Part shown: positions 4,003 to 55,747 of the stretch, piece after piece
How positions within the stretch are numbered: the stretch's first letter is position 1
Layout: each line of letters begins with the position of its first letter
DNA from: an uncultured Thermoleophilia bacterium
GTDB lineage: Bacteria; Actinomycetota; Thermoleophilia; UBA2241
Length of the DNA stretch: 64,000 nt
Assembly (NCBI GenBank): GCA_963790185.1
Contig: CAWBNR010000007.1
Location: 14,832 to 78,831 of the forward strand
Direction of reading: 5' to 3'
The notes under the pieces: generated by a model
Told to the model about the DNA's origin: nothing
What the model saw: the letters and a program-made list of their open reading frames with translations, nothing else
Database searches by the model: none
Position numbers and translations under genes: made by a program

Positions 4003-4057
4003 GCGGCTGTTGCCTCACGCAACAGGCTCCTGGGACCACGCGAGGGTGGAGCACACG

Positions 4058-13758: not shown

Positions 13759-13803
13759 GGTTCTCTCCTTATCTTGCTGATGACTGCGGTTGAGTTGCCA
13801 GGA

Positions 13804-14508
13804 TCAAAGGCCCAAATATGAAGACTTGACTCGCGGATCACGCAGCAGTTTATCTGCCGAGCCAGACAGCGCCACTTCTCCGTTTTCCAGGAGATAGCCG
13901 TGTTTCGCAATGGACAAGGTGTGCAAGACCTCTTGGGACACGAGAAGCACTGCCAGGCCTTGATGGTTGAGCTCCTCGACGATGCGAAAGATTTCCTTTG
14001 CTGCAATGGGCGCAAGCCCCAGGGAAGGCTCGTCCAACATGAGTAATTTCGGAAGCCCCATGAGGGCTCGCGCGAGGGCCAGCATTTGCTGCTCGCCGCC
14101 ACTCAAACTTCCTGCACGCTGCTTTCTGCGTTCCTCCAGCCGTGGGAACAGGCCGAACATCTGCCGCTTAGTTTCCAATGTCCTCGCGCGTGCGGCGGGC
14201 ACATACGCGCCCATTTCCAGATTTTCCTCCACCGTCATGGCGGAAAAAAGCTTTCTGCCTTCGGGTACTTGAATGATTCCCAGGCGACAGATCTCGTCGG
14301 GCGAAAGTCCTGTTACGGAACGGCCTTGCCACAGAATCCGCCCTCCGGAACAAGGCAACAGCCCCGAGACCGCATTGAGGAGTGTGGTCTTTCCCGCTCC
14401 ATTTGATCCAATGAGCGCCACCAGGTCACCCTCGCCAACCTCGAGAGACACGCCCTGCAAGGCCCTTAGTTCCTGATAGCTTATCCGGATGTCCTCAAGT
14501 TGCAGCAT
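13804..14508 (-). CDS. livF: Branched-chain amino acid ABC transporter ATP-binding protein LivF
   Basis: Walker A GSNGAGKTT, ABC signature LSGGEQQ, Walker B LLMLDEPS. Confidence 0.85.
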   Translation of the reverse strand: MLQLEDIRISYQELRALQGVSLEVGEGDLVALIGSNGAGKTTLLNAVSGLLPCSGGRILWQGRSVTGLSPDEICRLGIIQVPEGRKLFSAMTVEENLEMGAYVPAARARTLETKRQMFGLFPRLEERRKQRAGSLSGGEQQMLALARALMGLPKLLMLDEPSLGLAPIAAKEIFRIVEELNHQGLAVLLVSQEVLHTLSIAKHGYLLENGEVALSGSADKLLRDPRVKSSYLGL

Positions 14509-15226
14509 ACTCGGCTCCCAAATAGGCCGTGATGACCTCACGATGATTGGTAACTTCGCTCGGGGACCCGTCTGCGATCTTGACGCCATGCTGGAGAGCG
14601 ATCACGCGCGAGCAGGTTTCCATAATCGCCTTCATGACATGCTCGATCATAAAGATAGTAGTGCCGAATTGGTCTTTGATGCGGAAGGTGAGTTCTATGG
14701 CTCCCTTGATTTCCGAGGGATTAAGGCCGGCGAAGACTTCGTCCAACAGCAACAGTTTAGGGGAGGAACCGAGAGCTCTGGCCACCTCCAGGCGCTTGCG
14801 GTCCTCCAGAGCCAGCTGGCCGGGATATTGATCGGCTTTGGCCTTCAGGCCGGTGAACGCGAGAATTTCGAGGGCCTTTTCTTGAGCCAGTTTCATGGTC
14901 TCAATTCCTTGGCTGCCGTAAAGTACCGCGGTGGCAACGTTTTGGCAAAGGCTCGAATCCATGAGAGGCCGCACGATCTGGAACGTCCTACCGACACCCA
15001 TGGCTGCAATCTTGTGCGGCGGGAGCCCGCTAATGCGCCGACCTTCAAAGGTGATTGTGCCCGCGTCAGGCGCGTACAAACCTGATATCACGTTAAACAG
15101 GGTGGTCTTGCCTGACCCGTTCGGCCCTATAAGCCCAACGATTTCACCTCGGTTGACGCGAAAATCCACTGCGGACAGCGCCATAACCCCGCCGAAACGT
15201 TTTGTTACTTGCGTTCCTTCCAGCAT
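14495..15226 (-). CDS. livG: Branched-chain amino acid ABC transporter ATP-binding protein LivG
   Basis: GPNGSGKTT Walker A; overlaps the livF start. Confidence 0.85.
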   Translation of the reverse strand: MLEGTQVTKRFGGVMALSAVDFRVNRGEIVGLIGPNGSGKTTLFNVISGLYAPDAGTITFEGRRISGLPPHKIAAMGVGRTFQIVRPLMDSSLCQNVATAVLYGSQGIETMKLAQEKALEILAFTGLKAKADQYPGQLALEDRKRLEVARALGSSPKLLLLDEVFAGLNPSEIKGAIELTFRIKDQFGTTIFMIEHVMKAIMETCSRVIALQHGVKIADGSPSEVTNHREVITAYLGAEYAAT

Positions 15227-15304
15227 GGTCCTCTCTGAACTTCAGGCGTGGAGGCTTCAAAAGGCCGCTCCTATTCTACGCACTGTCATCCCGCTCACTT
15301 GCTC

Positions 15305-16090
15305 TCATGTCTCATCCACGATGGCCACCGGTCTCACCCAACCGGCGCTGGCTCCTTTGACTTTTACGGGAAAGCAGCACACCGTGAATCCACTGGACCG
15401 ACCAATGGCCGAGAGGTTCGCCATTTTTTCCATGTGACAGTACCCGATCTCAATTCCTGCGAAATGGGCCTCCCATATGACCTTGGGGTCACCGGTCTCT
15501 CGGAATTCCTCTGCCAGGAAGGGCAACGGACGATCCCAGCTCCACGCATCGATTCCCGTCACCTTGACCCCTTTCTCCGTGAGAAAAAGCGTGCTCTCCC
15601 TGTCCATGCCGGCCCCCTTTGTGAGATATTCGGGGGTCCCCCAGGCTGCGTCAGCGCCAGTTTGAATAAGCACAATGTCCAATGGCTCAATTTCGTACCC
15701 AATGCGTTGGAGTTCCTTCTGAAGGTCTTTACTCGTGATTCGCTCTCCGTCTTGCTTATGGCGGAAATCCAGCACAACGCCACGGTTGAAACACCATTCC
15801 AAGGGCACTTCGTCAATGGTAAGCGCAGGAGCCGTGCGATCCATAAACGGGTGATAGTGATAGGGCGCATCCATATGAGTGCCACTGTGGGTGGTGAGCG
15901 TGAGAAGCTCCACGGACCAGCCCAGGCCTCTGGGGAGCTGTTCGGATTGGAGGCCTGGAAAGAACTCCTTCATTTGCTGTGCGCCCACCGCGTGATCGAA
16001 GTACTGTATCTTCGGGACCATGAAGGGGGGATCGCTGGGAAGATCGGTCTCGATAGCGATGCTGAGGTCTATGAAACGCTTACGTCCCAC
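15305..16090 (-). CDS. Cyclase-family protein (arylformamidase / kynurenine formamidase-like)
   Basis: HSGTHMDAPYH matches the HxGTHxDxPxH motif of the cyclase family. Confidence 0.7.
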   Translation of the reverse strand: MGRKRFIDLSIAIETDLPSDPPFMVPKIQYFDHAVGAQQMKEFFPGLQSEQLPRGLGWSVELLTLTTHSGTHMDAPYHYHPFMDRTAPALTIDEVPLEWCFNRGVVLDFRHKQDGERITSKDLQKELQRIGYEIEPLDIVLIQTGADAAWGTPEYLTKGAGMDRESTLFLTEKGVKVTGIDAWSWDRPLPFLAEEFRETGDPKVIWEAHFAGIEIGYCHMEKMANLSAIGRSSGFTVCCFPVKVKGASAGWVRPVAIVDET

Positions 16091-16286
16091 TGAAAAATCC
16101 TCCTCTATCCATTGCGGAATGCGTTCTCATGTGATCGGCAGTGCCGCCACTGCGGACCTGCGGTGCAGAGCGAGGAAATTGAGCTCGGCTATTTGTACCG
16201 GGCTGCCAAACTCGCCCACTCCTCACAAGGCCCACGGCACTCCCCCAAGGCACGCTGGAGCGCCTCACGGCGTTCCGTGGTCACCC

Positions 16287-18382
16287 TTACACCCTATATC
16301 GTTCGATTAGTTCCTTGAGCTGACCACCGACGTCGGCCAGTTTTCGCGCGGAGGTTTCCAGCTGCACCGTGCCTCCGACGTTTTGCCGCATGGCCTGTTC
16401 GATATTGACCATGGCCTGTGCCACCTGACCAACTCCCACGAGCTGCTGGTCGCTGGATGCCTCGATCACCTGTGCGGCCTGCGCGGACTCCCCGACGCTG
16501 CCACCGAGCACCCGGATGGCTTTTTCTGCCTCGCTGGATTCTTCGACCCCTGCATCTACGGCTTTCACGCCCTGTTCAGTGGCCATGACCACCGCACTGA
16601 CCCATCTGCGGGTTTCATCGAGAATGGACCGGACCTGTTCGGTGGCCGCTTTGGACTGGTCCGCGAGGCTCTTGATTTCTTGCGCCACTACGGCAAAGCC
16701 CTTGCCCTGGTCGCCCGCGCGGGCTGCCTCGATGGACGCGTTCACCGCCAGGAGATTGGACTGATCCGCGAGGTCCTGCACCGCGGAGATGATGGCCGCG
16801 ATCTGATCGCCGGATTCACTGAGTTTCTCAACCGTTTCGCCAATCGATTCCATTTGTTGCTTGATGTGGCGCATGCGATTTGTGGTGTCCGTGGTGGCCT
16901 TTTCTCCCCCTACCGAGACCTGGACCATCTTTTGAGCCGCTTGGGCCACGTTCCTGGCTTGTTCGTTCGACACGATGGCGGACTGCTTCACCTGTTCCAC
17001 GGTAACGGAGGTTTGTGTTACCGCAGACGAAGTTTTGGCAGTGGAGGTAGATAATTGCGCAACCGTGGTGGAGATTTCTGAGGCCGAAGAGGCGAGAATG
17101 TTCACCGCTTCAAGAGTGTCCCGAGTCTGACTTCTCAAGCTTTCCACCATTGCATTAAGAGCAGCGCACAACCTGCCCACTTCGTCACGAGACTTGGTTT
17201 TCACGTTCCTGGTGAGGTCGCCTTCTCTGATGGCTTCCGCGAGGCCTACCGCAGCCAATATCGGTCTGGTAATTGCGCCGGAAAGCACATACGATATGAA
17301 GAAGGCCGCAATAATGGTTATGATGGTGCCGAACAGGAGTACGCCGTAGGCCTTTGCTTCGGTTCCTTGAGCAGCTTTGGTACGCATTTCCAATATGGTC
17401 TGCTCCTGTGCCTTAAACGTCTCCATGAGGCTCCGCAAGTTGTCGAACAGTTTCTTGCCTCCGCCTCTGGAAACCTCCTGATTCACATCCATCATGGTTT
17501 TGGACCGGGCAATCTGACCCCGCAGGGCGATTTCCGGTTCGACCACGTCTTTGATCCATGCCTTCATGCGGTCTTCGATTTGTCCGAGAAGCATCACCTG
17601 TTCAGGGTTATCGATAACGGCTATTTCTCAGAAGATCGGTCTTCTGAAAGAATTGCACTCTTCCGACACGATAGGGTTCGAGGAATTCATCCTTTCCCGT
17701 GAGAAGGTACCCTCGAAGCCCAGTTTCGATGTCCACTGCGGCTCCGCTGAGCCTGAGTGCGTCCTTGACCACCTCGTTTTCACTATTCACCCACTGGACA
17801 GTCTGGCGCAGCTTTTCCGGGTCCATTTCCGCGTTTTGCGCATCAATTCGCTTGGCCAGGAGCGTTTCCTCATTCCCGACGAATGTCTGGATCATCTGGC
17901 GGAGCACATCAAAGGATTGTTTGCCTTGGCTTTGGGACACGAGGCCTGCCATGTGGTTCATGTCCTTGCCCTCGCCCACCTCGCGGCGTAGGGCTATTTC
18001 CGGTTCTGCAACCTGGCTCTTCCATTCTTTGAGCACCGTTCCTATTTGGTCCAGCAGGCCCTGCCTGGGATTGCGTTGTCAATTTTTTCGTTAATTCAGT
18101 CACATCGGTGAGGATGGTCTTTTCCGCGGCTTTGTACGGTTCCAGAAACTCTTCCTTGCCCGTGAGCAGATACCCATGAAGGCCTGTTTCCATGTCTACT
18201 GCGAACTTCTCGATGGTTTCAGCCTGCTGTACGATGCGATACGTCTGATCCTTTGTCGCGATGCTCTGGCTCATGGAACCGATGCTCAGCCACGCTACAG
18301 TGGACAGGATCACCACCAGAGCCACAGGCACGATTCCGCCGGTCATGGTTTTGGTTCTGATGCCAAGGTCTCTAAATCTCAT
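16287..18382 (-). CDS. Methyl-accepting chemotaxis protein with two CHASE3-like N-terminal modules and HAMP; two apparent frameshifts (~17600, ~18040)
   Basis: C-terminal signalling domain ([34 protein letters not shown]). The motif [17 protein letters not shown] / [17 protein letters not shown] occurs twice, in ORFs 17608-18036 and 17909-18406. Confidence 0.8.
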
Positions 18383-19195
18383 GTGGTCTTCCTTTTTCGT
18401 CGGCATCCGCTGCCACTGGAGCTACATGGGGCTCGGTCGCTCGTGCCGTCATACGAAGGTTCCTTCTTGGCTCCTTCCATGATCCCTGCGCCCATCAGGG
18501 CCATAGACCCCTCGCACGAGCTCATTCACCAGGGAAGCTACTTTTGACCCCAACTGTGGCCGCTGGAAGACGTTTCCCAAGGACAGATACTCTTCCTGGG
18601 AAGTCTCCTGGCTCTCTTTCAAAAATTCTTGTCCGCGTCGTCTCTGCGGTGTGGTTCCGAGTGGTCGAAACAATACCCTGCCGCGGCAGCGTCACACATC
18701 GTGGTGACCTGAGAAGTAGCCGTTTTCCGGAAAACGGTCTGTCGCTCGACAGCATCCTGGATTCCGAACCCTCGCGTCAACGAGTAAGGAAACCCTCACA
18801 GCGGTATGTGACCGAGCCCGCTGGCGTTGAGAATTTGGTGCACGACAGTCGCTCTTGCGCACTACGAATTCGGCCCACCGAACTCGTTCCCCGACACACG
18901 TGGGACAATATATGCAAGCTCACGCTGGGCGGAGGACCGCCTGTGTGGTTACCTTATACCACAAACGGATCCTCCGTCAAACACTGTGTGAGCCCATAGA
19001 ATGGCCTGTACATGCTGTCTTGGGCTGTCAGAGCCACCTTGTAAGACTGCAATTTCCTCGGGCGGTTGCTGGGGACAGGAGCTGGTTGCGGAGTGCCGCG
19101 TTACACGAACCGCTCTTGGAAAGGTGGCAGGAACGCGTCAGTTCGTATCAGGCGTGGTGTGTTGCAGTAGGTTCCGAAGGGTGGTGCGAAAGTTT

Positions 19196-19933
19196 TCACC
19201 ACGCCCTTTCGTTCACGAGGGAGGCAAATCGCTTCAATATGTCAGCCCCATAGGGAGTGTCCGCGCTCTTGGCAATCAGTGCAGCGGGATCCTGGCCTTC
19301 TTTCGACAGCTCTTCTCTATGCGAACTAATGTATTCTCGGACAATCATGGCATCGAACTCGGGGTGAAATTGTAATCCCCATGCGCAGTCTCCCACTACA
19401 AAAGCCTGGTTACTGTCTCGCTCGCTGTACGCCAGCCGCCTTGCCTGGGCGGGCAGGGTGCAGAACCGACTGAGTATGGCTCAGGTGTACCGTGATTGGC
19501 GTCGGCAATCCGCGTAACAAGGCGTCCTCTTGCGCTCTTTCCTCCAGGTTGACTTCAACGGTGCCAAATTCCAGGCCTTTCGGATTGTCTCCCACCTTAC
19601 CCCCCAATGCATAGGCCAGGAGCTGATGCCCGTAGCAGATTCCGAGCATCGGAATCCCTTTCTCCACACCAGCGGCCAGCCACTCTGCCGTTCGTTCACT
19701 CCAGTCTTGGTGTTCGGTCACCATGGAATGCGACCCTGTGACCACAACGCCCGCGGTGGCATCATAGGAGGGTAGGGCTGACCCTTTACACGAAGTCTAC
19801 GACGAGTGTGCCTTCATCGGGGATCTGCAATCCGCTCTGAATCCAGTTTTCAAAGTCGCCCTTTTGTGAGGCAAGGGAGGGCATTGTACTTCCGACCTTT
19901 GCGATGACAATCTTGCGCATCGGTGTATCCATG
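19196..19933 (-). pseudogene. Class I glutamine amidotransferase (GMP-synthase-like GATase1), disrupted by at least two frameshifts
   Basis: GICYGHQLL catalytic Cys motif (19410-19745) and LQFHPEF (19196-19396). The N-terminus MDTPMRKIVIAKVGS starts at 19933 in a third frame. Confidence 0.5.
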
Positions 19934-19971
19934 GCCCCTTCCTTTATATTCAGTGACCCCTTGCCACGTTT

Positions 19972-22900
19972 TCACGTCGTGGAGCGTGATGCCTGTCTTG
20001 CGCCGTGAGGAGCCACGGGAACGACGTCTGCGGGGTGCATCCTGCCGCGAGTCGAACGGAAGAAGGACGTGCGATTGAGCACCTTTTCTTGGAATTCTTC
20101 CAGGTACAAATAGATCACCGGCGTGATGTACAGCGTGATGAACTGGGACACCACAAGTCCCCCGACGACCACCAGCCCGAGCGGCCGACGAGAGGCTGCA
20201 TCAGCTCCGAACCCCACGGCAATGGGAATCGCTCCGATGACCGCGGCCAGGGTCGTCATGATGATGGGGCGGAACCGGTCCATGCTCGCGTCGTGAATGG
20301 CCTTTTCGGCCGATTCGCCAGCCTCGACCCGCTGGCGAGCGAAGTCAACGATCATGATCCCATTCTTCTTGACGATTCCCATGAGCATGAACATGCCCAC
20401 AAATGCGTAGAGCGACGCCTGCTCTCCGAACAGAAACAGCGTCAAGAGACCCCCCACCAGCGCCGTGGGAAGGGTCGAAAGCACGGTGAGCGGATGCACG
20501 TAGCTCTCATACAGGATGGCCAGAATCACGTACATCACGAACACGGCCAACGCCATCAGGATCGTCAGATCTCTGACCGTGTCGCGGAACGTAAGGGCCT
20601 CGCCCTGGAGATCTGCACGCATGGTCGACGGCACGATTTCTGCCGCTGTCTTGGTGATGAAGTCAGTGGCATCGCCCATGGCCACGCCAGGCTTGAGGTT
20701 GAAGTAAAACGTCACGCTCGGGAACTGGTTGAGGTGATTCACGCTCTGAGGCCCCAGCGTGGTCTTCCACGAGACCAGAGCGTTGAGCGGCACAAGGTTC
20801 TTCCCGTCGTCGGACTTGATGTACAGAAGCGACAGGTCGTCGGGTTTGGAGCGGTCCGCGTCTTTGGCTTCCAGAATCACCTGGTACTGATCCTCGGGCT
20901 TCTTGATGAGGTACAGGTAATTCTGCGAGTACGCATTTCTCAGGAGATTGAGTATCCGCGTCTCCGATACCCCGTACGTCCTGGCCTGGTCGCGGCGGAT
21001 ATCGATGTCGAGGTTGGGCGTGTGGTCGAAATAGTCGGAGGAAATGGTCAGAAATCCCGGATACGGTCTCAGCTTTCCCATGAGTTTCGAGGATACTTCG
21101 TAGACCTGGTCAGGGTTCACTCCGGAGACGGAGAAGGCATATTGCCCCTGATTTCGGTTTGTCGCACCCGTGCTGATCTCCAGCACCGGGAAAGGCCGCA
21201 AGAACGGGAAAATGCCGGGAATGGACATCAGTTTGCCCATCAATCCGCCTGCCACAGCCTGGATGGGGGCTCGCTCTTCAGGTGGCTTGAGGAACACGAG
21301 CAGCAGACCCTGGTTCGACGACAGAAACGTGCTGTTTCCCGTCATGGTGAAGGTTGCGTTGACACCGGGATCTTGCTGAATCATTTCGTCGGCTCGGTCC
21401 TGAAACACTCGCATCTGCTCGGGAGATGAGCCTTCTCGGGCGATCATGACGCCCCAGATGAAGCTGCTGTCGCCCGTGGGAAGAAAGGTCTTGGGAATAG
21501 CCATGAAGAGCCCTATCGTGCCGACGAGGCACACGACCCAGATCAACGCCGAGATCCATCGCCTCCGCAGGAACCACCACAAGCGATGCCCCATACGCGG
21601 CCAGCACCCGCTTCTCCAGGCCACCGACCACCCGTTCCATCCACGTTTGCTTGGACCCGTTACCACGGTCCTTGAGCAGTCTCGCGCACATGAGGGGCGT
21701 GAGTGTCAGCGAGACAATGCCGGAAGCGAAGATCGCAACCACGATGGTGATGGCGAACTCGCGGAAGACCCGGCCCATCAGCCCGGACATGAAGACCAGG
21801 GGGATGAACACCGCGGCCAGGGAGATGGTCATGGAAAGAATGGTGAAGCTGATCTCCTTGGCGCTATTGATGGCAGCCTGCAGACGCCTTTTCCCCGTGC
21901 TCCATCCGCCGAACGGTGTTCTCCAGAAATACGATCGCGTCATCGACGAGGAATCCGATGGCCAGCGCAAGCGCCATGAGCGACAGGTTGTCCAGACTGT
22001 ACCCCAGCACATACATTGCCACGAACGTGAGCAGGAGCGACAGCGGGAGAGCCACGACCGGGATCAGCGTGTCCGTGGCTCGGCCCAGAAAGACGAAAAT
22101 GACGATCACCACCAGGACAAAGGCCATGAAGAGCGTCCACTGCACGTCATCGACGGAGTTGACGATGGTCCGAGACCGGTCATAAATCGGCGTCACGCGC
22201 ACCGACCCGGGAAGTTCTGCACTGATGACCGGCAGCAGATTCCGAACGCTCTGCGCCACGTCCACCGCGTTGGACCCGGCCTGGCGGAAAACGGCCACGA
22301 CCACGGTGGCAGACGGCAACGGGTAGCCCCTGAGCCAGAACCGCATGTTGATCCGTTCGTCCTGAACCGAGTCCTTCACCTGGGCCACGTCGCGCAGGAA
22401 CACCGGAGCGCCGTTCCTGGTGGCAACAATGAGATTCCCATACGCCTCGGCATTTTCCAGTTGGCCCTTCGGCCGGAGCAACGCGGTCCCGGAAGCACTG
22501 TCGAACTGGCCAGCTCCGGTGTAGCTCGTGCCGTTCTTGATGGCCGCGGCCAAGTCATCCATGGATATGTTGCGAGCCCACATCTTGGACGGATCGGCCT
22601 TGATGCGCACAGCAGACTTGGTGCCATACACATTCACGCGGCTCACACCCGGCAGAATGCTGATCCGCTCGCCGACCTGCGTATTGCCGTAATCGTAGAG
22701 CTGACCACGCGTGACCGAATCGCTCGTGAGCGCAATGTACAGGATCGGCTGGTCGTTCGGGTTGGTCTTGGAGAAAGTCGGCGGCGAAGGAAGATCAATC
22801 GGGAGGCTGCCGGTGGCCTGGGTGATGGCCGTCTGCACGTCCGTGGCGGCCGCGTCGATGCTCTTTTCCAGAACGAACTGAAGCGTGAGGCTCGTGTGCC

Positions 22901-23160
22901 CTTGCGTGCTCTTGGAAGTCACGAGTTCCAGGCCGTTGATCTGCATGAATTGCCGCTCCAAAGGCGTGGCAATGTTGTTGGCCATCGTGTCGGGACTCGC
23001 TCCCGGATAATTCACGTCGACCTGGATGACCGGATAGTCCACTGCCGGCAGGTCATTTACCGGCAGCCGCAGGTAGCTGAGCACCCCAAAGACGATCACG
23101 GAAACCGTCAGGACCGCGGTCATTACCGGCCGGCGGATGAAAGGTTCCGGAGAGATTCAT
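19972..23160 (-). CDS. RND multidrug efflux permease (HAE1/AcrB family); three apparent frameshifts including one at the extreme 5' end
   Basis: ~1050 aa in total across ORFs 19972-21666, 21278-22012 and 21864-23123. The N-terminal FIRRPVMTAVLT and C-terminal VVGGLVVSQFITLYITPVIY are AcrB-like. Confidence 0.85.
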
Positions 23161-24304
23161 GATCTTTGCTCCTTGCCGGTCGGCGCTGGATGGTCCGCTG
23201 AGCCAGGCTCCTCGACCCGGACCTTGCCTCCGGGCATGACTGCGAGTTGACCGTTGGTGACCACCCGCTCACCCGGCCTGAGCCCTTGATCGACCACGAC
23301 CAATTCTCCTTGCCTCTGTCCGAGCTTCACCGGCCGCAATTCCGCGGTTGAATCCTCTTTGATCACGTACACGAATGAGCCTTTGGCAGACATCTGAGGA
23401 GCGGCAGCGGGAATGAGCACGGCACCTTGGATCGTACTCAACACAAGGCGTACCTTGACGAAACGGCCCGGCCAGAAGTGATGGTCGCTGTTGGGGATCG
23501 TGGCACGCAGCTTGACTGTGCCGACTCCTTCTTGAACCGCATTGTCCAGGAATGTGAGCTTACCGAATCTCGCCTGGTCTCAGCTTGTCAGGCAAACTTA
23601 CCTCGACCTTGAGCGTACCCGCCTGCATGTTTTGCTGCACGGCTGAAAGCTCTTCCTCGGGGATCGTGAAATCCGCGTAGATCGGGTCCAACCGCTGAAT
23701 GACCAAGAGCGAGCCGGTATTTGCGGCCACCACGTTCCCGATGTCCACGAGCCGTTGGCCGGTCCTGCCATCTATGGGCGAGCGAATGGAGCAGTATTCG
23801 AGATTTAGCCGAGCGGTCTCCACCTGAGCCTGACTCTCCTGCACTTGGGCATCAGCTATGTCGAGGGTGTTCTTCCTCTGATCGTAGTCGGACTGGGAAA
23901 CGGACTTTGTCTCCAGGAGGCCAGCGTAACGGTTGAATTGGATTTTGGCCAATTCCGACATCGCCTTCTTCTCTGCAAGGGTAGCCTCTGCCAAATGGAG
24001 CTGCGCCTCGTACGGACGCGGATCAATGGTGAAGAGCAGGTCGCCTTTCTTCACATCCGCGCCGTCCGTAAAATGAATCTCGGTGATGCGGCCCGAGACC
24101 TGGGGTTGAATGGAAACTACCTCAATCGCGACTGACTTGCCGATGCTGTCGAGGTACACGGGCACGTCCTGCGAAATGGCTGCAAGCTACGGTTACCGTT
24201 GGCAGCGGCCGGGTCATGCCGACTGAGCGTTGCTTTTCGCAGCCGGCCAGCATCGTGGCCAGGAGACAGATCACACAAGCGCTTCAATAGAGGCCTGTTC
24301 GCAT
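23157..24304 (-). CDS. RND efflux membrane fusion protein (AcrA/HlyD family) lipoprotein; at least two apparent frameshifts
   Basis: Lipobox LLATMLAGC near 24250. Beta-barrel and lipoyl-like segments in ORFs 23560-24165 and 23157-23444. Confidence 0.7.
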
Positions 24305-24406
24305 GCCAAGTCTCTCCGTGGATACTGCGAAAGCTGTCAGCGACGGGGGCTTTCGCTGGTTCGATTCAGCTTTCTCTTCATGAGGTCCACTGCTTGACGG
24401 TATGTC

Positions 24407-25012
24407 CTAAGACCGAATCTTGTTGCCCATCTTTCGCTCCTCGACTTGCTCTGCTTGATTCCGAATACCCGACCAGAGAACGTTTGCCATCTGCTTCAAG
24501 CAGTCAGACAAGGGTTTCGACGGATCCAACGACCACAAAACCGTCGTGCCGAAGAGAGCCCGTTGGAACTGAAATGCCAATTCCATCGGCGAGAAATCGT
24601 CCCGAATCTCACCGCGGTCTTGTCTTGCAGCCATTAGCTCTGCAAGCACACGGCGATCCTCAAAGAAATCATTCGCCATCTGTTGCCGTGCGGATTCATT
24701 GGAAAAGAATGCGGCAAGAATGCTTTGCATCAACGCAGGGGAATGTCCAAACTCCTCGATGAGTATCAAAGCGAGATCATAAAGCACCCGATCCATGGAT
24801 TCCGAGGAGTGTAGCGATCTTGCAACGAATTCACGGATTTTCCCCATCTGCAACTGGCAAAGATGCACGAGAATGTCTTCTTTATTGGGGAAATAATTGA
24901 AGAAAGTGCCTTTGCCTACATCAGCCTCATTGGTGATATCTTCCACGGTAGTCGCGGTAACCCCGCGTTCGGAGAAAAGGCGGAGTGCTGCGCGAATGAT
25001 CCGCTCGCGCAT
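24407..25012 (-). CDS. TetR/AcrR-family transcriptional regulator (likely regulator of the downstream RND operon)
   Basis: N-terminal HTH ALRLFSERGVTATTVEDITNEADVGKGTFFNYF; first gene of the tetR-mfp-rnd arrangement. Confidence 0.8.
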   Translation of the reverse strand: MRERIIRAALRLFSERGVTATTVEDITNEADVGKGTFFNYFPNKEDILVHLCQLQMGKIREFVARSLHSSESMDRVLYDLALILIEEFGHSPALMQSILAAFFSNESARQQMANDFFEDRRVLAELMAARQDRGEIRDDFSPMELAFQFQRALFGTTVLWSLDPSKPLSDCLKQMANVLWSGIRNQAEQVEERKMGNKIRS

Positions 25013-25227
25013 TTCGGCCCGACGACGTTCTCGCCTATTGGGTGCTTTTGCACAGCTCTGGGTGGCTCTGTGCTTGTTTCATGAATCGCGTCGTCCATAG
25101 CCGTCTCCGAGAATTGTCCAGGAGTCTTATGCGACTTTAAGTCATCTCTGGTTGAGAGTCAAGGCGTGGCGCCGGGGCTACCTGAAAGTCTTTGCTAAGC
25201 TGCTGTTTTTGTGGTACACGGTATATC

Positions 25228-27123
25228 ATGCGGTTTCTATCGATGGGATGGGAGGGAGAGATGGGAAGACTAGTCTGTATTGCGTTGTCGGTCGTATTCA
25301 CTGTCCTATTCTCGGTTGCCGGCCTGGGGTGGGCCCAAGGGGGCACCGCAGAAGCTGGTACACAAACAGCCCTAACGCACGCCGACCAGCTTGACGCCAA
25401 GGACACCAGAAAACTCACCAAAATCAGAAAGCTCGAAGACCTCAGGAAGGAACTCGCGGGATCCACCCAGTTGGGGCCTGAAGCTTTTCGGAGAATGGAA
25501 GAGAGTCTGACGGCATTCCTGAATGATCCCGAGAGCGATGATCTCCCACGGTATGACCTGCTGGTTCAACTGGGTGATCTTCACATGAGACGGCAAGAAA
25601 AAGGCAGCCGACTCAACGCGATTCAGTACTTGCACCTTGCCGCCATCGAGGATCCCGGACGGGTCGAGGCGTACCTGAGGTTGGCCCAACTCTACTCTGA
25701 CCTTGGTGAATCTCAGGAACAGATCAAATATCTGAATTTGGCTCATGACATTGTCGCATCCGCGGCTCGATACAGCCAACTGGCAAACATATCCCGCAAA
25801 CAGGGCGATGAGCAGAAGTACGCACGGTACAAGCGCCACGCGCAGGAAGTTCCCAAGTCCTTCGAAGCATGGTACCTTCTCGCACAGTACTACATGGAGC
25901 GAAGCAATTATTATGCAGTCTTGACGGCATTGCGTCCCGTAGCTTTTGACAGAAATTCGTATTACCGCGACGATCCATACATGATTAATCAAATGTACCG
26001 CGCCGCGACGCTCGACATGAACACCTTTCGCTATTGGGCGCCACCTCTTTATGCCACCATGATCGGACTGACTCCGCTCCAGCTCGAAAAGCGCATTGAA
26101 AGCAAGTTCGGAAATTTTCCCGATGTGGATCTTGCCAAGAAGGTTCTCGCGTACTTGTTTTCCGAAGATCTGCTGTCCTACTTGAGAAGCGCTATTGACG
26201 TGACTGCATACCATGAGGTGGAAGACAAGGACTCAGGTCGACCGGTCTTCAAATTGAAACCGGTGACTCTCGGATGGGGCTCGCCCAAATCTCCCTTGAA
26301 ATTCGATAAAGACCTCGGGAAATTGCTGCCCGAGTTTTTTGTGCGCGCCTCCGTGTCTCCCGCTCCCACGGATACTGCCGAAGAAAAGAACAAGAAGGAA
26401 GAACAGCTCAAGATACTCAAGCAACGTATTTCGGACCTCAAGAAGACTGCGACGGAGAAATTCGGCAACATCAAGGACCCGGAGCAAAAGGCGAGGGCCC
26501 TATTCGAGTGGCTCAAGCAGGATGTGCTCAAGAACTATGCTCTGGTAGAAGGAATTCCCGCGGAAAATGTGCTTGATCCTGAGAAGAAGAAGTATCTCTG
26601 CCTCACGGGCGCGATCATGTACACGTTTCTCGGTCGCCACCTCGGGCTGGATGTGGTAGGCTGCTTGGCCCCGGGACATGCGTATTGTCGTTTCAATCAC
26701 AACGGCAGATCGATTATCGTGGAGACCACCGAAATTGCCGGTTTTGATATTCCAGAGAGTCAGCTTTACAAAGGAAAAGGAAAGCACGGCGGTATATTGT
26801 TCCCAGAGAGACCGGAAGGTCCGGTAAGTCCGTGGGAGCTGGTAAGTTGTCAATTCCTGAATGTCGCCTATGTCCAGCCGCGACTTCTCATCTATGAGAA
26901 AGCGCAGTACAAGGATCTAGCCTTGAAGGCCTTTGAGAAACTGCCACAGCCGGCGGTGAACGAAATCAAGAAGGTCAGGGAGAACTTTGAGAAGAAAGAA
27001 CGCAAGGACGACAAATTCAAATGGGAGGGCACGTTCGCTGCCAAGGACTGTCTGGAGACGTGGTGTCTCACCCCGCTAGGAACCGTGCGGCAACTCGGAG
27101 TGGACAGCGGGACAACTCATTGA
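25228..27123 (+). CDS. Large secreted hypothetical protein with a helical-repeat region and a C-terminal transglutaminase-like Cys-protease core
   Basis: Signal-peptide-like N-terminus (LVCIALSVVFTVLFSVAGLGWAQG). The C-terminal CLTGAIMYTFLGRHLGLDVVGCLAPGHAYCRFNHNGRSIIVETTE fits a Cys-His-Asp/Glu transglutaminase-like core. Confidence 0.45.
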   Translation: MRFLSMGWEGEMGRLVCIALSVVFTVLFSVAGLGWAQGGTAEAGTQTALTHADQLDAKDTRKLTKIRKLEDLRKELAGSTQLGPEAFRRMEESLTAFLNDPESDDLPRYDLLVQLGDLHMRRQEKGSRLNAIQYLHLAAIEDPGRVEAYLRLAQLYSDLGESQEQIKYLNLAHDIVASAARYSQLANISRKQGDEQKYARYKRHAQEVPKSFEAWYLLAQYYMERSNYYAVLTALRPVAFDRNSYYRDDPYMINQMYRAATLDMNTFRYWAPPLYATMIGLTPLQLEKRIESKFGNFPDVDLAKKVLAYLFSEDLLSYLRSAIDVTAYHEVEDKDSGRPVFKLKPVTLGWGSPKSPLKFDKDLGKLLPEFFVRASVSPAPTDTAEEKNKKEEQLKILKQRISDLKKTATEKFGNIKDPEQKARALFEWLKQDVLKNYALVEGIPAENVLDPEKKKYLCLTGAIMYTFLGRHLGLDVVGCLAPGHAYCRFNHNGRSIIVETTEIAGFDIPESQLYKGKGKHGGILFPERPEGPVSPWELVSCQFLNVAYVQPRLLIYEKAQYKDLALKAFEKLPQPAVNEIKKVRENFEKKERKDDKFKWEGTFAAKDCLETWCLTPLGTVRQLGVDSGTTH

Positions 27124-27142
27124 ACTGAAGCTGATTCGCTCA

Positions 27143-27774
27143 ATGATAGAATTGGATCCGGAGTTTCATAAGGAGGTTCTTGCAAAGTACGAGGAAGGCC
27201 TCGAAGTGCTGGCCAGAGCCCTACAGATGGAACCGTTCAGCGCCAAATTCAGGCGTGGGTATGTGGGCATGCTGCAGCTTGCTCAAGCCGTGGACGTGGG
27301 ACCGCAGACAACCAAATTGAAAGAGTCGATCATCGAGCTCAGCAAGGCTAAAAAGGAGCTTGCAGAGGCTATTCAGAATTTTAAGAAAGCGGCTACGACT
27401 GGCCAGGAAGAAAAGTCGGGGGGACGACGCCTGGCGGGACCCAGTCAGAAACCCGGACGCGGGCAGAGGCCAAAATCGAGAAATACTTTGCCGTTGGCGA
27501 GGCCGCAGCGCGAGATGCCGTGGAATTTGGGAACCCCCTCATCAGTTCTCTCGAGAGAAGGAGGGCAGCAATGAAATACTGTCCGCCGATTCCGGAACTT
27601 CGGCAAGAGTATCTCAGGTCTGTCAACTCTCTGTATCGACATTTGGCAAGTGTGGAGGCCTTTTGTGACAGCTTGTTGAAATTGCCTGGTGCGCCGGAGA
27701 ATATTACCCGCACCAAAGCCGACGTGTCAGCCCTGAGAGACAAGGTCGGCGCTCTTGCTTGGGGAATGGATTGA
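27143..27774 (+). CDS. Hypothetical protein; apparent frameshift in a GGGGGG run near 27415 joining ORFs 27143-27574 and 27520-27774
   Basis: Protein-like sequence continues across the homopolymer in the +2 frame (AEAKIEKYFAVGEAAARDAVEFGNP). Confidence 0.35.
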
Positions 27775-27973
27775 TGAAGGGCCGGTCCTGTGAGGGGAGG
27801 CCGGCGGTCGCAATAACGGGACTGCAATTCGCCGCAAAGAACGCCTTTGGCGATACGCATGATGGTGGTCCGGGGCGGCCGCCGGTTTCCGATAAAATGG
27901 TGAAACCCACGCGCCCCTCAGGATCGGAGGCGCTCTTGACGTCATGCCTTACAAAATCGGATAAGAGCGGAGA

Positions 27974-30156
27974 TTGATGATTCACGACGACCACTCCAAG
28001 AATAGGCCAGCCCTGGGGCTGGACTCCTCTAGTCAGGAACTGTGGAATTGCGGGGAGACCCTGAGGGCGCTCCTGGACGCAGCAGAGGACGCGGCGTTTC
28101 TCCTGGACCAACAGGGAAGATTTCTCGCACTCAACCGAGCTATGGCAGAAAGATTCAGTGCGAGGGCTGACGACCTTCTCGGCAAGTCTATTCTTGATTT
28201 CTTTCCGGCTGATCAAGCCGCGGAAAGACAGGAGCTCCTCAATCGAGTGTATCGTGAGGGAAAGCCGGGGCGTCACGAGTACGAGACGTCGGGGCAGGTC
28301 TTTCGACACGAGGCTGTACCCGATTTTCGGCAAGGACGGACAGGTGGTGGCTGTTGCGGCATTCTCCCGGGACGTGACAGACCAGAAGATGGCCGAGAAT
28401 GCCTTGCTTCTCAGTGAGATGAGGTTTCGGGAGATCTACGACAACTCGCCGGTGATGATGCACTCCATCAACGTGACGGCGTGATCCTCAACGTGAACAA
28501 GAAATGGCTCGAGGTGCTCGGGTACACGCGAGAGGAAGTGATCAACCGTCGGCTCGATCTCATCATGACGCCCGAGTCGGCTCGGAGGGCATTTTCGGAC
28601 ATTCTCCCCGGTTACTGGGCAGCGGGGAAAATAGCTGACGTATCTTATCAGTACGTAAGAAAAGACCGCACGGTTATTGATGTCCTCTTGGATTCGACCG
28701 TGATGAACGACCCGGACTGGGGATCAGTCAGCCTGTCGGTGATTCGCGATGTCACGGCCCAGAAGCGGGCCGAACAAGCCCTGAGAAGGAGCGAGGAGCG
28801 GTTTCGGGCAATTTTCGAGGGTGTCCGGGATTGCATCTTCATCAAAGACCGCCATCTTCGGCTCAGCCATGTCAATCCTGCCGATGGAAAAACTCCTGGG
28901 ACGTGTCGCGTCGGAGCTGATCGGACTCACTGCCGATGAAATTTATGGGGAAGAAGCGGGACGGCATATCAGAGAAGTGGAGCTTCGCGTCCTGAAAGGA
29001 GAATCCGTCGAGGAAGAGCATACGAGGCCGGTCGGCGACTCGAAGATGACGTTCCACGACATCATAGCCCCACTGCGGAGCGGGACCGGACAGATTATCG
29101 GCATATGCGGGATTTCGCGAAACATCACCGAAAGGAAGAAGATGGAATCGGATCCCGCAATTATCACCGCGGAGTATCCGTCAAAGGCCATGAGGGAAAC
29201 CTTGGCAAAGGCTCGGTATGCCGCGGCCAAGGACAGCATTGTATTGCTCCTTGGAGAAAGCGGTAGCGGAAAAGACTACCTGGCGCGATGGATTCACGCC
29301 CATTCCCGTCGTTGCAACGGACCCTATTTTTCTATCAATTGCGCGGCAGTTCCTCATGAGCTGGCCGAGTCCGAGCTGTTTGGTCACGAGGCTGGCGCTT
29401 TCACCGGCGCTCGCGGCAGGAAGAGAGGACTTCTCGAATTGGCCGAAGGCGGGACGCTTTTGCTCAACGAAATCGGAGAACTGTCGCTGAGTCTCCAATC
29501 CAAATTGCTTACGTTCCTTGATACGAAGTCCTTCTTGCGAGTTGGCGGCGAGAGAAGCGTGCATGTCAACGCGAGGCTCATGGCCGCGACCCATCGAGAC
29601 TTGGAAGAGGAAGTCAAGTCAGGACGTTTCTTGCAGCCGTTGTTTTATCGACTCAACGTCTTCAGTATAGAGCTTCCGCCCCTCCGAAGACGGTCCGAAG
29701 ATATCCCGATACTCGTGAAAGAGATGCTGGCTCGGTTGGCCACGGAAATGCACCTGACCGAAATACCGATCCTAGAATGCCGAGGCCTTGAATACGCTCG
29801 CACAGTACCGTTGGCCCGGAAACGTCAGAGAACTCAGGAATGTCCTTGAACGCTCTTTGATGGTGACTTCCGGAAGGTCCCTTCGTGTCGCGCTTCCCCG
29901 TCCAGCCACGGAATCGGAGGACTGGTGGCACAAGGTACGATTCCCGGAGGGCACGAGCCTGCATCACGTGACAGAAGAGGTAATCACCTCTCTATGTAAG
30001 GAAGCGCTCAGGCGCTCCGGCGGCGCGAGAAACAGAGCCGCCGAGCTGCTTGGGATATCAAGGGATTCGCTCTACCGTTACATGAAACGTTTCGATGGTC
30101 CGGAAGAGGTGATTCAGGCTTCTCAATCGTCTGACGGGCAGAAGAACAAGGTTTGA
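27974..30156 (+). CDS. Sigma-54-dependent transcriptional activator with three PAS domains (PAS-PAS-PAS-AAA+-HTH); about four apparent frameshifts
   Basis: Walker A GESGSGKDY, sigma-54 contact motif GAFTGA, Fis-type HTH AAELLGISRDSLYRYMKRF. Five consecutive ORFs in alternating frames. Confidence 0.8.
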
Positions 30157-30349
30157 CACCAAGTCTCATGGCTGTCCGTGCTTCTGTGTGTGACGTCGGG
30201 AGTTCACTCGCGGCAGGCAGGTTGCCGCAATCGTATGGGATTTCTGGAGAGGGCCGGAGGGAGTGCCGTGGCAAGGGAAGACTCGCTCTGGCACATGCAT
30301 TCCACCTGGAGCGTCCGCTCACTGTCTCTCGTCCTCTGAGGGAGTTCCT

Positions 30350-30647
30350 ATGGAAGACAAAGTCAAAACCACGGAAGAACTCCTGACCGAAGGGTCTCTC
30401 CTACGCGAGCAAGGTGCCGAGTTCGATGGACGTGACGCGGACTTACTGCCGCTTGAAGCAAAGGGCACAGGCTTGGAGCGACATACGAGTGAGGTCGCTC
30501 CCGAAGATAGGAGCAGGGTTGAAGAACCACCACAGGCTGGAAAAGACCACCCGGCTTCTCCAGGCAATGAACGCTGCTCAGAATCGCTTCATAAGCAACG
30601 GCGATCCGAGACAGCTTTTCGACGGGTTGTTGGGTCCGGGTCGGTAG
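30350..30647 (+). CDS. Small acidic hypothetical protein; its stop codon (30645-30647) coincides with the GC-content junction
   Basis: GGAGT-type ribosome-binding site. The long ORF 30263-31021 reads through into the antisense of a high-GC gene and is not credible beyond 30647. Confidence 0.3.
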
Positions 30648-30650
30648 TCG

Positions 30651-31252
30651 CGGTCAAAGACGCGTACTTCAGAGGGGGCGTCGACGCGCTCGAAGAGGTG
30701 TCCGGTCGCCTCCTCGGCGAGCACGAAGGCGGGCACGCGCAGCATCTCCGCGGCGTTGAACGCCTCGACGGTCAGGGAGAACATCTCAGCGACGGACCAA
30801 GGGGCGAACGCCACCACTTGGTAGTCGCCGTGGCTGCCGTACTTGACGGTCATCACGTCGCCGCCGCCGACCTTCGTCGCCTGTCCGGTGCTGGGTCCCG
30901 CCCGCTGGACGTCGACGACCACGAGCGGGGTCTCGGTGAAGGCCGCGTACCCCAGGCACTCCTGCATGAGGCTCAGGCCCGGTCCGGACGTGGCGGTCAT
31001 GGCCTTCACGCCGGACCATGAGGCGCCGGCCACGGCCGCGATGGAGCCGATCTCGTCCTCCATCTGGATGAACGCCCCGTCGTGGGCCGGCAGCAGCCGG
31101 GCCAGGTTCTCCATGATCTCCGACGAGGGCGTGATGGGGTAGCCGGCGTAGAAACGGCAGCCGGCCGCGATCGCCGCCTCGGCGGCGGCCTCGTTACCCG
31201 ACATGTAGCGGGGGCCGGCGGGGATGCCGGTGGGTGTCGTGGAATACGGCAT
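30651..31252 (-). pseudogene. 2-oxoacid:ferredoxin oxidoreductase alpha-subunit (KorA/PorA-like) N-terminal fragment, truncated at the composition junction
   Basis: GNEAAAEAAIAAGCRFYAGYPITPSSEIMENL is the TPP-enzyme N-terminal module. Only ~200 aa are present where ~370-600 are expected; homology stops where GC drops. Confidence 0.55.
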
Positions 31253-31261: not shown

Positions 31262-31504
31262 CTAGCCCCCCTGTACCGGCGGGACCAGCGTGATCGCGTC
31301 GCCGTCCTTGGGGACGTAGTCAAGGGCGATCAGCTTTCCGTTCGCGGACGCGGCGGCCACGCGGCCCGGCGGCATGCCGATGGACTCCAGGATCCGGCGC
31401 AGCGTCTCCCCGTCGCGCGCCTCGATCTTGCGGGTGTAGGCGTCCGCGTCGGGCTTGAGGTACTCCGTCAACAGCCCGCCCGCCTTGATCATAACCGTGA
31501 CCAT
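31262..31504 (-). CDS. MoaD/ThiS-family sulfur-carrier protein (C-terminal GG)
   Basis: MVTVMIKAGG...ITLVPPVQGG; ATGA start/stop overlap with the upstream AOR gene. Confidence 0.6.
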   Translation of the reverse strand: MVTVMIKAGGLLTEYLKPDADAYTRKIEARDGETLRRILESIGMPPGRVAAASANGKLIALDYVPKDGDAITLVPPVQGG

Positions 31505-33420
31505 CAGAACGCCTTCGGCTTGTAGCGCTCGCCGCGCACGGGCGGCAGCGGCGACGTGAGGTCCCCGATGAGGCCCTCCCTCTCCAGGTTGGCGACGCAC
31601 TCATCCAGGCCCAAGTCGAGCAGCACCTCGCGCGAGGGGTTGCCGTCCTTCCCCCAGCCGCGCGCCACGTAGTACTCGTCGAGCATGAGGTCGAGGTCCT
31701 CCAGCGTCAGCCGCGCCCCCTGCCGACGGACCCGAGGGCACCGCCTCTTCGTAGAACCGGGCGTTGGGGTAGTCGTGCTTGCGCCCGGGGCCGCCGTTAC
31801 GCTCGAGGTAGTGGGCGCGATTGAGGTTCCAGATGCTGCTCGGAAAGGCGCAGCGCCTCCTCCAGCGTGAAGTCGCTCCAGCCGGTCATCATGCGGATCG
31901 CCGTCGATGTGCTCCTCGTCGGAGACGTCGACCTCGCCCCAGAAGAGGCGGCAGCACGAGACGGTGTCGAAGAACGGTCGGATGTGCTGGAGGTAGACGA
32001 CGACCTTGGCCTTGCCGGCGAGGACGTTCTTGCCGAGGTCCTCGTCCATGGTGATCGTCCAGGAGCGGTTGTGATGGGCACCGATGTCGGCGGTCATGTA
32101 GGAGAGCAGCATCGCCGGCGCGCCGCGCCCGTCGTAGCCGCTCATGCCCTGTCCCTTGACCTGACAGGCGAGACGCTCGGCGCCTCCCCCGATCTGCTGC
32201 CGCGGCGTCGGCGTACCCGCGCGCGAACGCGTCGCCGATCCCGCGCCGGTGGACGATCATGTCGACGAAGTGCTCGAAGTCCTCGATCGATCCCCAGCGC
32301 ATCTCGTGACCCTCGAGTCTGATCGCGCGTGATGAGACCCTTCTCGTAGCACTCCATGGCGAAGGCGGCCATGCCGCCGCCGGTCATCGTGTCGATGCCG
32401 GCCATGGTCGAAGAGCCAGTTGACGTAGGCGACCTGCTCGATCTGGTCGAAGCCGCAGTTGCCGCCGCACAGCGACCCGGTCTCGTACTCGGGGCCCTCG
32501 ACGTAGACGGTGTCCCGGCCCGGGAGCGACACCTTGGAGTACTTGCCGCAGTTCATCCAGCAGCCGAAGCACGCCTTGTCGGAGACGAGGAGGCGGTCGA
32601 CCAGGACCTGCCCGTCGATCCCTGCGTAGGGCTCGAAGTAGGTGGTCTGGAAGTTGTGCGTCGGGTACACGCCGTGCTCGTTCGACCAGCCGACGAACAT
32701 GGCCGTGCCGTACTTCTGCCACGGCGCCATGTTCGGATGCTGCGCCGTGCGCTTGATGATCTCCAGGGTGCTCGCCTTGAGCGCCGGCAGGTCGTGGACG
32801 GGCAGCGTCTTCGTGCCGCGCACGGCGATCGCCTTGAGCCTCTTCGAGCCCATCACGGCGCCGATGCCGCAGCGCCCCGCCTGGCGGCCGTAGTCGTGGC
32901 CGATGCACGAGAACGTCACGAGGTTCTCGCCGGCCGGTCCGATGCAGGCGATCTCGAAGTCCTCGCCGAGGTCCTTCTTGAGCATCCGCTCCGCGTCCAT
33001 GGTGCCCTGCCCCAGTACTTCGACGCGTCGCGAAGCTCGACCCTGGTCGTCGTCGATGAAGAGGTACGTGGGGGATGCCGCGATGCCCTCGAACACGAGC
33101 AGGTCGTAGCCGGCGAACTTGAGCTCGGGTCCGAAGTGGCCGCCGACCGTGGAGTCGCCGTGGCCGTTGGAGAGCGGGCTGACCGCGCCGAAGCAGCACT
33201 TGGCGCCCGACGGGGCGAAGTGGCCCGACATGACCCCGGGGGTGACGACGAGCCGGTTCTCGGGCCCGAGCGGATCGGCGCCGCGGGGGACCTCGTCGTA
33301 GAGGATCTTGGCGACGAAGCCGCGGCCGCCCAGCCATGCGCGGGCGAACGCCGGATCGAGGGGCGCGCTGGCGATCGCGCCCGTGTTCAGGTCGATGCGA
33401 AGCGTGTTGCCGCCGAAGCC
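31504..33420 (-). pseudogene. Tungsten-containing aldehyde:ferredoxin oxidoreductase (AOR family), split by at least 5 apparent frameshifts
   Basis: MVPGFGGNTLRIDLNTG N-terminus, ...CGKYSKV..., C-terminal LDLMLDEYYVARGWGKDGNPSREVL; pieces lie in ORFs 32257-33798, 32142-32405, 31889-32302, 31797-32081 and 31504-32145. Confidence 0.7.
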
Positions 33421-33425
33421 TGGGA

Positions 33426-33869
33426 CCATGCCGGCTCTCCCTACTCCGCCCGCACCAGGGCGCCGGTGTTGCAGACCTCCGTGCAGGCCCAGCAGAAGTC
33501 GCACTTGAAGGGCACGCTCGTCGTCACCCTTCATGAGGACCTCCTCCGGGCACGCGTCGAAGCACGCGCCGCACTGCTGCAGAGTTCGCCGTCGACGACA
33601 TACACGCCGTCGTCCCTCTGCGAGATCGCCTCCGTCGGACACGCGTCGGCACAGTCTCCGCACTGGTCGCACACGTGCGGCACGTACTTGCCGGGCGAGG
33701 GGAACAGGGCCTCGATGCGGAGCCGGGAGCGCCGCGGATTGGTGTCGCCGAACTTCTCGATGGCGCAGATCTGCCGGCAGAGCCGGCAGCCCGTACACGC
33801 CTCAGGAGTGACCTGGATCCTCACCGGCAGCCTCGCCGTCCAAGCTTGGACACTGTCTCCGGAAATCAT
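33426..33869 (-). CDS. 4Fe-4S ferredoxin / polyferredoxin (AOR electron-transfer subunit, AorA-like); one apparent frameshift
   Basis: CTGCRLCRQICAI, CDQCGDCADACP, CQQCGACFDACP, CDFCWACTEVC cluster motifs; immediately upstream of AOR. Confidence 0.6.
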
Positions 33870-48314: not shown

Positions 48315-49612
<1,298 letters not shown>

Positions 49613-54178: not shown

Positions 54179-54226
54179 GCCCCGAGTCCCGGCGACGGTC
54201 GCCGCCCGCGTATACTCTGCGCTGAT

Positions 54227-54265
54227 GCCGGAGTGGCGGAACTGGTAGACGCCGGGGACTTGAAA
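54227..54265 (+). repeat. 39-nt direct repeat identical to the 5' half (acceptor/D-arm/5' anticodon stem) of the tRNA at 56669; putative att site / tRNA fragment
   Basis: GCCGGAGTGGCGGAACTGGTAGACGCCGGGGACTTGAAA is identical at both sites. The sequence diverges afterwards and no complementary 3' acceptor strand follows. Confidence 0.6.
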
Positions 54266-54695
54266 TGCGTCAGGCTGGTCCCAATGGGTTCTATTGCAGC
54301 CCGTCTCAGGCTCGCCCTCATCAGGCTCGTGACACTGCGTCAGTCGCTGTCCCACCGTCTTCCGACGACCACGTTTGCACTCTGGTTTGCAGCAATCGGT
54401 CAGCTGCGCTGATGGCGATACGAGGGCATTGGACCCGGCTGCCCAGTGATTGATTTACGCCGGTCCGCACTTGGGGAACACTCTGAAACGGAAGCTGAGG
54501 GAGGGCCGCTACCTCCCTGATGTGAGAGCCAGATTCGAGCAGATGCTCCTTGAGCTGGGAGGCCGGCGCGCGTCAGTTACTCGCGAGAGCCGGAAAGTCA
54601 AGTCCTAGCCGCCCTCCTTGTTCGTCATCCCCGAAGAGAGTGATACTGAAGAAGGCGGGACAAGGGGCGCTTCGCCAGGACAGGAGGGAGCCGTC

Positions 54696-55724: not shown

Positions 55725-55747
55725 GAGGGTCGGGAGGTCAGCGGCAT

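Follow-up and report, generated by a model that had tools for sequence, protein, structure and literature searches.

In a stretch of 64,000 nucleotides attributed to an uncultured Thermoleophilia bacterium (referred to here, at its full length, as the window), the base composition changes abruptly inside korA, a gene encoding the alpha subunit of a 2-oxoacid:ferredoxin oxidoreductase. Does the sequence record the entry of a large block of foreign DNA into an actinobacterial chromosome, or were the genomes of two unrelated organisms joined in the course of assembly? An earlier note, which took the contig to be chimeric, ranked a real 30-kb insertion into korA as the less likely alternative.

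In bins of 1 kb the GC content ranges from 0.50 to 0.61 across positions 1-30,000 and from 0.62 to 0.77 across positions 31,001-64,000, and at a resolution of 100 nt it climbs between about 30,600 and 30,700. In a two-segment scan, the likelihood of a change point was highest at 30,673, and the 2-lnL support interval was 30,594-30,702. The jump from about 52% to about 70% described in the earlier note is real, the first of these figures being slightly low, as the two segments have overall GC contents of 55.3% (1-30,634) and 70.3% (30,635-64,000). Worked out from the bin and segment figures, the z value of this step is approximately 39, which is far beyond chance.

The tetranucleotide signatures of the two halves, whose comparison the note had also proposed, differ as well. 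After normalisation for GC content, the correlation among six 5-kb chunks of the left half has a mean of 0.77 (minimum 0.70) and that among six chunks of the right half a mean of 0.88 (minimum 0.82), while between left and right chunks the mean is 0.39 and the maximum 0.57. The left half correlates at r=0.92-0.97 with its relative L004, and the right half at r=0.95-0.99 with its relatives L041 and L042, the lowest value in each case being that for the sequence of the relatives past the breakpoint, which has no counterpart in the window; correlations across the two lineages are 0.42-0.51. In this comparison with the relatives of both lineages, neither half shows any sign of compositional amelioration.

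The left segment is seen only from the start of the window, which makes it at least 30.6 kb long, and its far end lies beyond the window. The 719-kb contig L004 (contig_52606) is collinear with window positions 13,106-30,632, over at least 17.5 kb, at 81-87% nucleotide identity, or 77-87% if the less similar last 294-nt piece of the alignment is included. The named matches of the rlmI gene of L004 are Desulfomonile tiedjei, Desulfomonilaceae and Thermodesulfobacteriota MAGs, at 65-70% identity, and among these named matches its product is closest to Desulfomonile tiedjei and Desulfomonilaceae MAGs. In L004, genes for a TetR regulator, a TPR protein, a small ORF, a PAS-PAS sigma-54-dependent activator (725 aa) and a GAF/PAS sensor (834 aa) are followed by those for an aminotransferase, an alcohol dehydrogenase, rlmI and serS. 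The same order is found in a related JGI contig as far as that contig reaches, and the window keeps it up to the sensor gene.

The sigma-54-dependent activator is identified by Pfam matches to Sigma54_activat (5.4e-61), PAS, AAA_lid_14 and HTH_8 on consecutive ORFs, and it aligns in three frames to the intact 725-aa gene of L004. The DNA of the adjacent sensor stump aligns to L004 from position 15,693 onward, and residues 54-94 of the L004 sensor, which carries GAF_2 and PAS domains, match window positions 30,510-30,632 at 85% (tblastn). Other products recognised by Pfam among 25 ORFs of the left half include a PAS histidine kinase, a BKACE enzyme, a branched-chain amino-acid ABC transporter, a CHASE3-HAMP-MCP chemoreceptor, an AcrB/MFP (RND) efflux pump with a TetR regulator, and a TPR/transglutaminase-like protein. 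The gene content of the left half is that of an ordinary chromosome. The note had assigned gvp genes and sigma-54-dependent activators to this side; the former were recovered as GvpL/F, GvpK and a GvpN-like AAA_5 protein, while for the latter a single activator was verified. Several ORFs around the gvp genes, in the cluster at 1,151-5,204, look fragmented. Both the window and the related JGI contig have the chemoreceptor gene (16,183-19,221, split in the window at about 17.6-17.9 kb), which L004 lacks; this is an indel polymorphism within the lineage of the left half.

The right segment belongs to a different phylum. A contig of 1.04 Mb (contig_93; L041 and L042) is collinear with it over 30,635-54,264 and 56,668-59,491 at 94-95% nucleotide identity, and the Thermoleophilia MAGs MFD02979.bin.2.124 and MFD00032.bin.2.201 are about 91% identical to it. 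Five related contigs (L001, L002, L003/L019, L006 and L041, of which L001 and L002 are two assemblies of one strain) align for 5-6 kb rightward from the join at 91-94% identity, and the 90% clusters to which the right-half proteins belong have members that are also named Thermoleophilia. In L001, L002, L003 and L041, the genes pth, L25, prs and glmU are followed by two saccharopine-dehydrogenase-type genes and then by Fer4, aldehyde:ferredoxin oxidoreductase (AOR), ThiS-like and korA genes, the Fer4 and ThiS-like genes being uncalled in L003; beyond korA lie korB, korC, a gltD-like gene and another Fer4 gene. The window keeps this order up to codon 206 of korA. Its Fer4-AOR-ThiS-like genes, identified by the Pfam domains AFOR_N, AFOR_C and ThiS, constitute the native context of the korA operon. 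The actinobacterial synteny that the note had recognised on this side was found in both of its parts, as glmU-prs-L25-pth and as mfd-mazG-eno-(pyk)-DivIC-DUF501-ppx, and the gene content of the right half is housekeeping. When the two halves are classified separately, as the note had proposed, the relative of the left half is thus Desulfomonilaceae-like and those of the right half are Thermoleophilia.

The relatives of each side also fix the position of the join. On the left, blastn homology to L004 stops at 30,632, the DNA alignment holding to 30,632-30,634 and failing thereafter. On the right, it begins at 30,635 in L001, L002, L006 and L041, and at 30,636 in L003/L019. Set in this way by the homology of each side, the breakpoint carries an uncertainty of 1-2 nt and falls between 30,634 and 30,635, 13 nt to the left of position 30,648, where the note had put it. 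The comparison shows that such a join can be pinned to the nucleotide without recourse to reads. There are no unaligned bases between the two homologies and hence no room for an adapter remnant, and no N bases or linker occur anywhere in the window. At the join itself, no direct or inverted repeat was found, microhomology does not exceed 1 nt, and no tRNA gene is present; the only tRNA genes of the window are at 36,950 and 56,669, the nearest being 6.3 kb away, and an Rfam scan of the window returned tRNA-Gln only. The native continuations of the two sides, namely L004 past position 15,974 and L001 and L041 past korA codon 206, have no similarity to the sequences that replace them in the window. 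The one independent contig of the same population, a Logan contig of 1,033 bp (L005, run ERR12035932), ends at window position 31,044 and misses the breakpoint by about 400 nt.

Table 1. Features of the window on either side of the breakpoint, with coordinates counted from its first nucleotide
Feature	Position	Strand	Description
Left segment	1-30,634	none	Chromosomal DNA of a Desulfomonilaceae-like (Thermodesulfobacteriota) bacterium, GC 55.3%
GvpN-like AAA_5 protein	1,151-1,780		Gas-vesicle cluster, left half
GvpL/F	3,184-4,002		Gas-vesicle cluster, left half
GvpK	4,707-5,204		Gas-vesicle cluster, left half
PAS-PAS sigma-54-dependent activator (AAA+, HTH_8)	27,974-30,156	+	Split over four reading frames as a result of 1-nt indels
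GAF/PAS sensor, 5' stump	30,350-30,634	+	About 94 codons with one internal frameshift; 834 aa in L004
18-codon tail and stop of the called 224-aa 'korA' ORF	30,578-30,634	-	Antisense of the sensor gene
Breakpoint	30,634/30,635	none	Blunt; at most 1 nt shared; no filler
korA, 5' part	30,635-31,252	-	2-oxoacid:ferredoxin oxidoreductase alpha subunit, residues 1-206 of 381
Fer4 - aldehyde:ferredoxin oxidoreductase - ThiS-like	31,265-33,830	-	Upstream of korA
Right segment	30,635-64,000	none	Chromosomal DNA of a Thermoleophilia (Actinomycetota) bacterium, GC 70.3%

The genes that meet at the breakpoint are convergent, and in both of them the 3' part is gone. The korA-like ORF matches positions 1-176 of the 231 of Pfam POR_N and nothing else, while its best relatives are proteins of 381 aa that contain both POR_N and PFOR_II. 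Its best match (P0001) is 96% identical to the stump across residues 1-206 and ends there; the note had accordingly been right in describing a gene read on the minus strand from 31,252 that retains about 200 of 370 or more residues. The stump resembles a KorAB/OFOR operon in this identity and in its location behind the same Fer4-AOR-ThiS genes, and departs from it in that the window does not contain the rest of POR_N, PFOR_II, korB, korC or the genes that follow, whereas a complete KorA combines POR_N and PFOR_II in about 380 aa and is followed by korB. What remains is a piece of a true KorA gene and not a functional member of the family.

The called ORF is longer than the stump, extending over 30,578-31,252 and ending with the residues ...DYRPG followed by PNNPSKSCLGSPLLMKRF. 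On the plus strand, an ORF of 77 aa (30,414-30,647) ends with a TAG at 30,645-30,647. This triplet is the antisense of korA codons (..GAC TAC CG.., Asp-Tyr-Arg), which makes the stop accidental. The low-GC ORF with a terminal TAG reported in the note does exist, but as an incomplete gene, the 5' stump of the 834-aa GAF/PAS sensor, which runs on into antisense korA. Both the 224-aa 'korA' ORF and the 77-aa ORF are by-products of the join. The two converging genes are cut mid-domain, so that neither could yield a working product, and both are complete, in uninterrupted neighbourhoods, in all of the relatives compared.

A real lateral transfer would require that a Thermoleophilia cell took up at least 30.6 kb of a Desulfomonilaceae-like chromosome and that this DNA was inserted very recently, by illegitimate end joining, at a double-strand break in korA. 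A blunt join free of homology is also a product of non-homologous end joining in the cell, the presence of the junction in a deposited contig implies that at least one read path supported it, and relatives of both lineages occur in neighbouring ENA accessions, so that donor and recipient plausibly share habitats. However, the incoming DNA is plain core chromosome. It stays collinear with its relative over the 17.5 kb or more that precede the join, and it breaks off partway through a sensor gene. It shows none of the amelioration looked for above, and the five related Thermoleophilia contigs keep korA intact. The left half encodes an RND/MFP efflux pump, a type of transporter typical of diderm bacteria, together with the sigma-54-dependent activator. 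Actinobacteria are without a sigma-54 system (PMC3162934). In the absence of sigma-54 such activator cargo should be useless, and the argument that the note had drawn from the lack of rpoN in Actinobacteria holds as background.

The incoming DNA also carries no mobility genes, integrase, transposase, recombinase, conjugation and phage genes being absent, as judged by Pfam, from the 25 ORFs examined in the 30.6 kb of the left half that fall within the window. Att-type direct repeats, terminal inverted repeats and tRNA genes are lacking at 30,634/30,635, the other boundary of the block being outside the window. A possible origin of the left half from a plasmid or phage was considered for its last 8 kb and found no support, as the plasmid matches listed are short patches covering 2-4% of the query and no phage match was obtained; several of these plasmid matches fall under sigma-54-type regulators, in AAA+ patches. 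The locus is like a genomic island or integrative element in that a large block of foreign composition adjoins host DNA and interrupts a host gene. It is unlike one in the lack of an integrase or transposase, of an att-type direct repeat and of a tRNA at the boundary seen here, and in that the block consists of collinear core chromosome of another phylum that itself ends in a cut gene.

The window contains an internal control for this comparison. The collinear L042 lacks a 2.4-kb insertion of lower GC content (62-64%) that the window carries at 54,267-56,667. On either side of this insertion stands a copy of a 40-nt direct repeat (54,226-54,266 and 56,668-56,708) that corresponds to the 5' half of a tRNA-Ser(tga) gene (56,669-56,758), and the insertion carries an RNase_T-like exonuclease gene (54,618-55,724) and a 254-aa ORF with no Pfam match, with no integrase among its genes. 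This segment is probably a small insertion that was genuinely targeted to the tRNA gene, or what remains of one. Nothing comparable to its tRNA-Ser repeat exists at the 30,635 junction. With the prior odds strongly in favour of misassembly in data of this kind, a transfer in the cell is highly unlikely, and the order in which the note had ranked it is supported by the lack of mobility genes and of amelioration and by the intact korA of the relatives. If true, the join would be a snapshot of raw inter-phylum transfer before selection or amelioration and with no mobile element, the cargo of more than 30 kb comprising a gas-vesicle cluster, an RND pump and a sigma-54 activator from a Desulfomonilaceae-like deltaproteobacterium.

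The public record bears on the stage at which the join arose. Fourteen proteins of the window, five from the left half and nine from the right half, are each on record with a single NCBI/ENA contig of 482,782 bp. The left-half TPR protein is 100% identical to P0121 on this contig, and the nine right-half proteins include the 224-aa ORF reading across the join (P0159). The occurrence of this ORF and of proteins of both halves on one deposited contig indicates that the join was already present when genes were called for the deposit, and the lack of any N in the window shows that it is not an N-gapped scaffold join. An artificial concatenation, which had also been suggested in the note, was therefore set aside. 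Two contigs pasted end to end at binning, scaffolding, submission or window construction would give the clean abutment observed, at which both genes are cut just as they would be where one contig end meets another. However, the window has neither Ns nor a linker, the join-spanning ORF and 13 other proteins share one public contig, and independent contigs would have had to end exactly mid-gene on both sides; the chance that the join arose in this way is very slight indeed. As to representation elsewhere, exact copies in Logan assemblies were found for three of the nine right-half proteins (one traced to ERR12035932) and for none of the five left-half proteins, numbers that are too small to use and that possibly reflect unequal abundance of the two organisms.

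Indels of 1 nt break genes on both sides of the join, including those for the sigma-54 activator, AcrB, the TPR protein, AOR, enolase and pyruvate kinase. The AOR and Fer4 genes show the same 11 window-specific 1-nt indels against three or four different relatives. Contig L005, which represents practically the same population (8 mismatches), lacks the three of them that it covers. The window-specific indels are clustered, with 11 in AOR and Fer4 (31,722-33,578), 12 in enolase (48,478-49,222) and about 25 in pyruvate kinase (50,904-51,951), and none were found in the korA stump, ThiS, glmU, prs, L25, pth, mfd or mazG. Most of the clustered frameshifting changes are 1-nt insertions outside homopolymers, and closely spaced indels compensate one another, which makes the counting of frames by tblastn an unreliable measure of frameshifts. 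The clusters look like damage to the consensus, or from polishing, that arises when conserved genes attract cross-mapping reads from related taxa. The use of indel density as a proxy for coverage was considered and dropped, as the errors cluster in three conserved genes, two of which are far from the join.

The records of the close relatives, for the left half as for the right, are of the 'contig_N' type and have neighbouring ENA ERZ accessions, and L006 and L019 are Microflora Danica (MFD) isolates. The MAGs of Microflora Danica were obtained from Nanopore reads only, with Flye --meta --nano-hq and a single round of Medaka (PMC12313526). From the error pattern and from these relatives, we infer that the window was itself assembled by a Nanopore/Flye or similar pipeline.

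Within such a pipeline, the two genomes might have been misjoined in the assembly graph through the collapse of a repeat, that is, at a sequence common to both, which would be a sub-variant of the chimera reading. The consensus damage of conserved genes elsewhere in the window, suggestive of cross-mapping reads, would fit this mechanism, but the two sides have at most 1 nt in common and their native continuations do not resemble the replacing sequences, and there is next to no likelihood that the genomes were fused by this route.

Taken together, the sequence comparisons make it very probable that the join at 30,634/30,635 is an inter-phylum assembly chimera from a noisy long-read metagenome and not a product of biology. 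Three marks of a chimeric contig are found here, namely an abrupt change in composition and k-mer signature, a switch of taxonomy at the level of genes, and collinearity with relatives of each lineage that continue differently. The chimeric reading of the earlier note is upheld by the collinearity of each half with a different phylum to the same nucleotide and by the truncation of both genes mid-domain, as well as by the composition of each half, which is that of its own lineage, and by the lack of any signature of a mobile element or of recombination.

In this case, one contig would have been made from the DNA of two bacteria that occur together in soil or sediment but are not related. One of them is a Desulfomonilaceae-like member of Thermodesulfobacteriota and a relative of sulfate reducers, the other a Thermoleophilia actinobacterium. 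The blunt join between sides that share no sequence makes one or a few chimeric reads the likeliest origin, as opposed to the collapse of a shared repeat. Such reads could have arisen from the ligation of two molecules in library preparation, or from two reads that the basecaller left unsplit, and the assembler may have followed them where coverage was too low for the chimera to be recognised. Genuine read support across 30,634/30,635 is accordingly expected to be absent.

Inter-phylum chimeric contigs of this kind are known to be produced by metaFlye and other long-read assemblers, and are marked by sudden shifts in GC content and gene taxonomy (bioRxiv 10.1101/2025.04.22.649783). Like the chimeras reported there by Trigodet et al., the present one joins two phyla with a sudden shift of GC content and taxonomy at a single point, and metaFlye is among the assemblers studied in that work, while the assemblies of the relatives of the window were made with Flye --meta. 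The chimeras of Trigodet et al. were shown by 100% read clipping and by coverage steps, whereas the present case is built on comparative genomics and composition.

The junction is biologically uninformative about either organism, and its practical use is as a warning on the quality of a public MAG, in which a contig of 482,782 bp deposited at NCBI/ENA appears to fuse two phyla. Users of this record might credit Thermoleophilia with gas vesicles, sigma-54 regulation and RND efflux, or a relative of Desulfomonilaceae with actinobacterial housekeeping genes. They might also infer a spectacular inter-phylum transfer, or call the cut korA a pseudogene.

Outside Thermoleophilia, the nearest relatives of korA are found in Desulfarculaceae, Desulfarculus and other Thermodesulfobacteriota MAGs, at 65-74% amino acid identity (loci L007-L018, L035 and L036), followed by Spirochaetota at approximately 46-49%. 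This distribution is a hint that these phyla exchanged the kor operon long ago, in an event that has no bearing on the junction.
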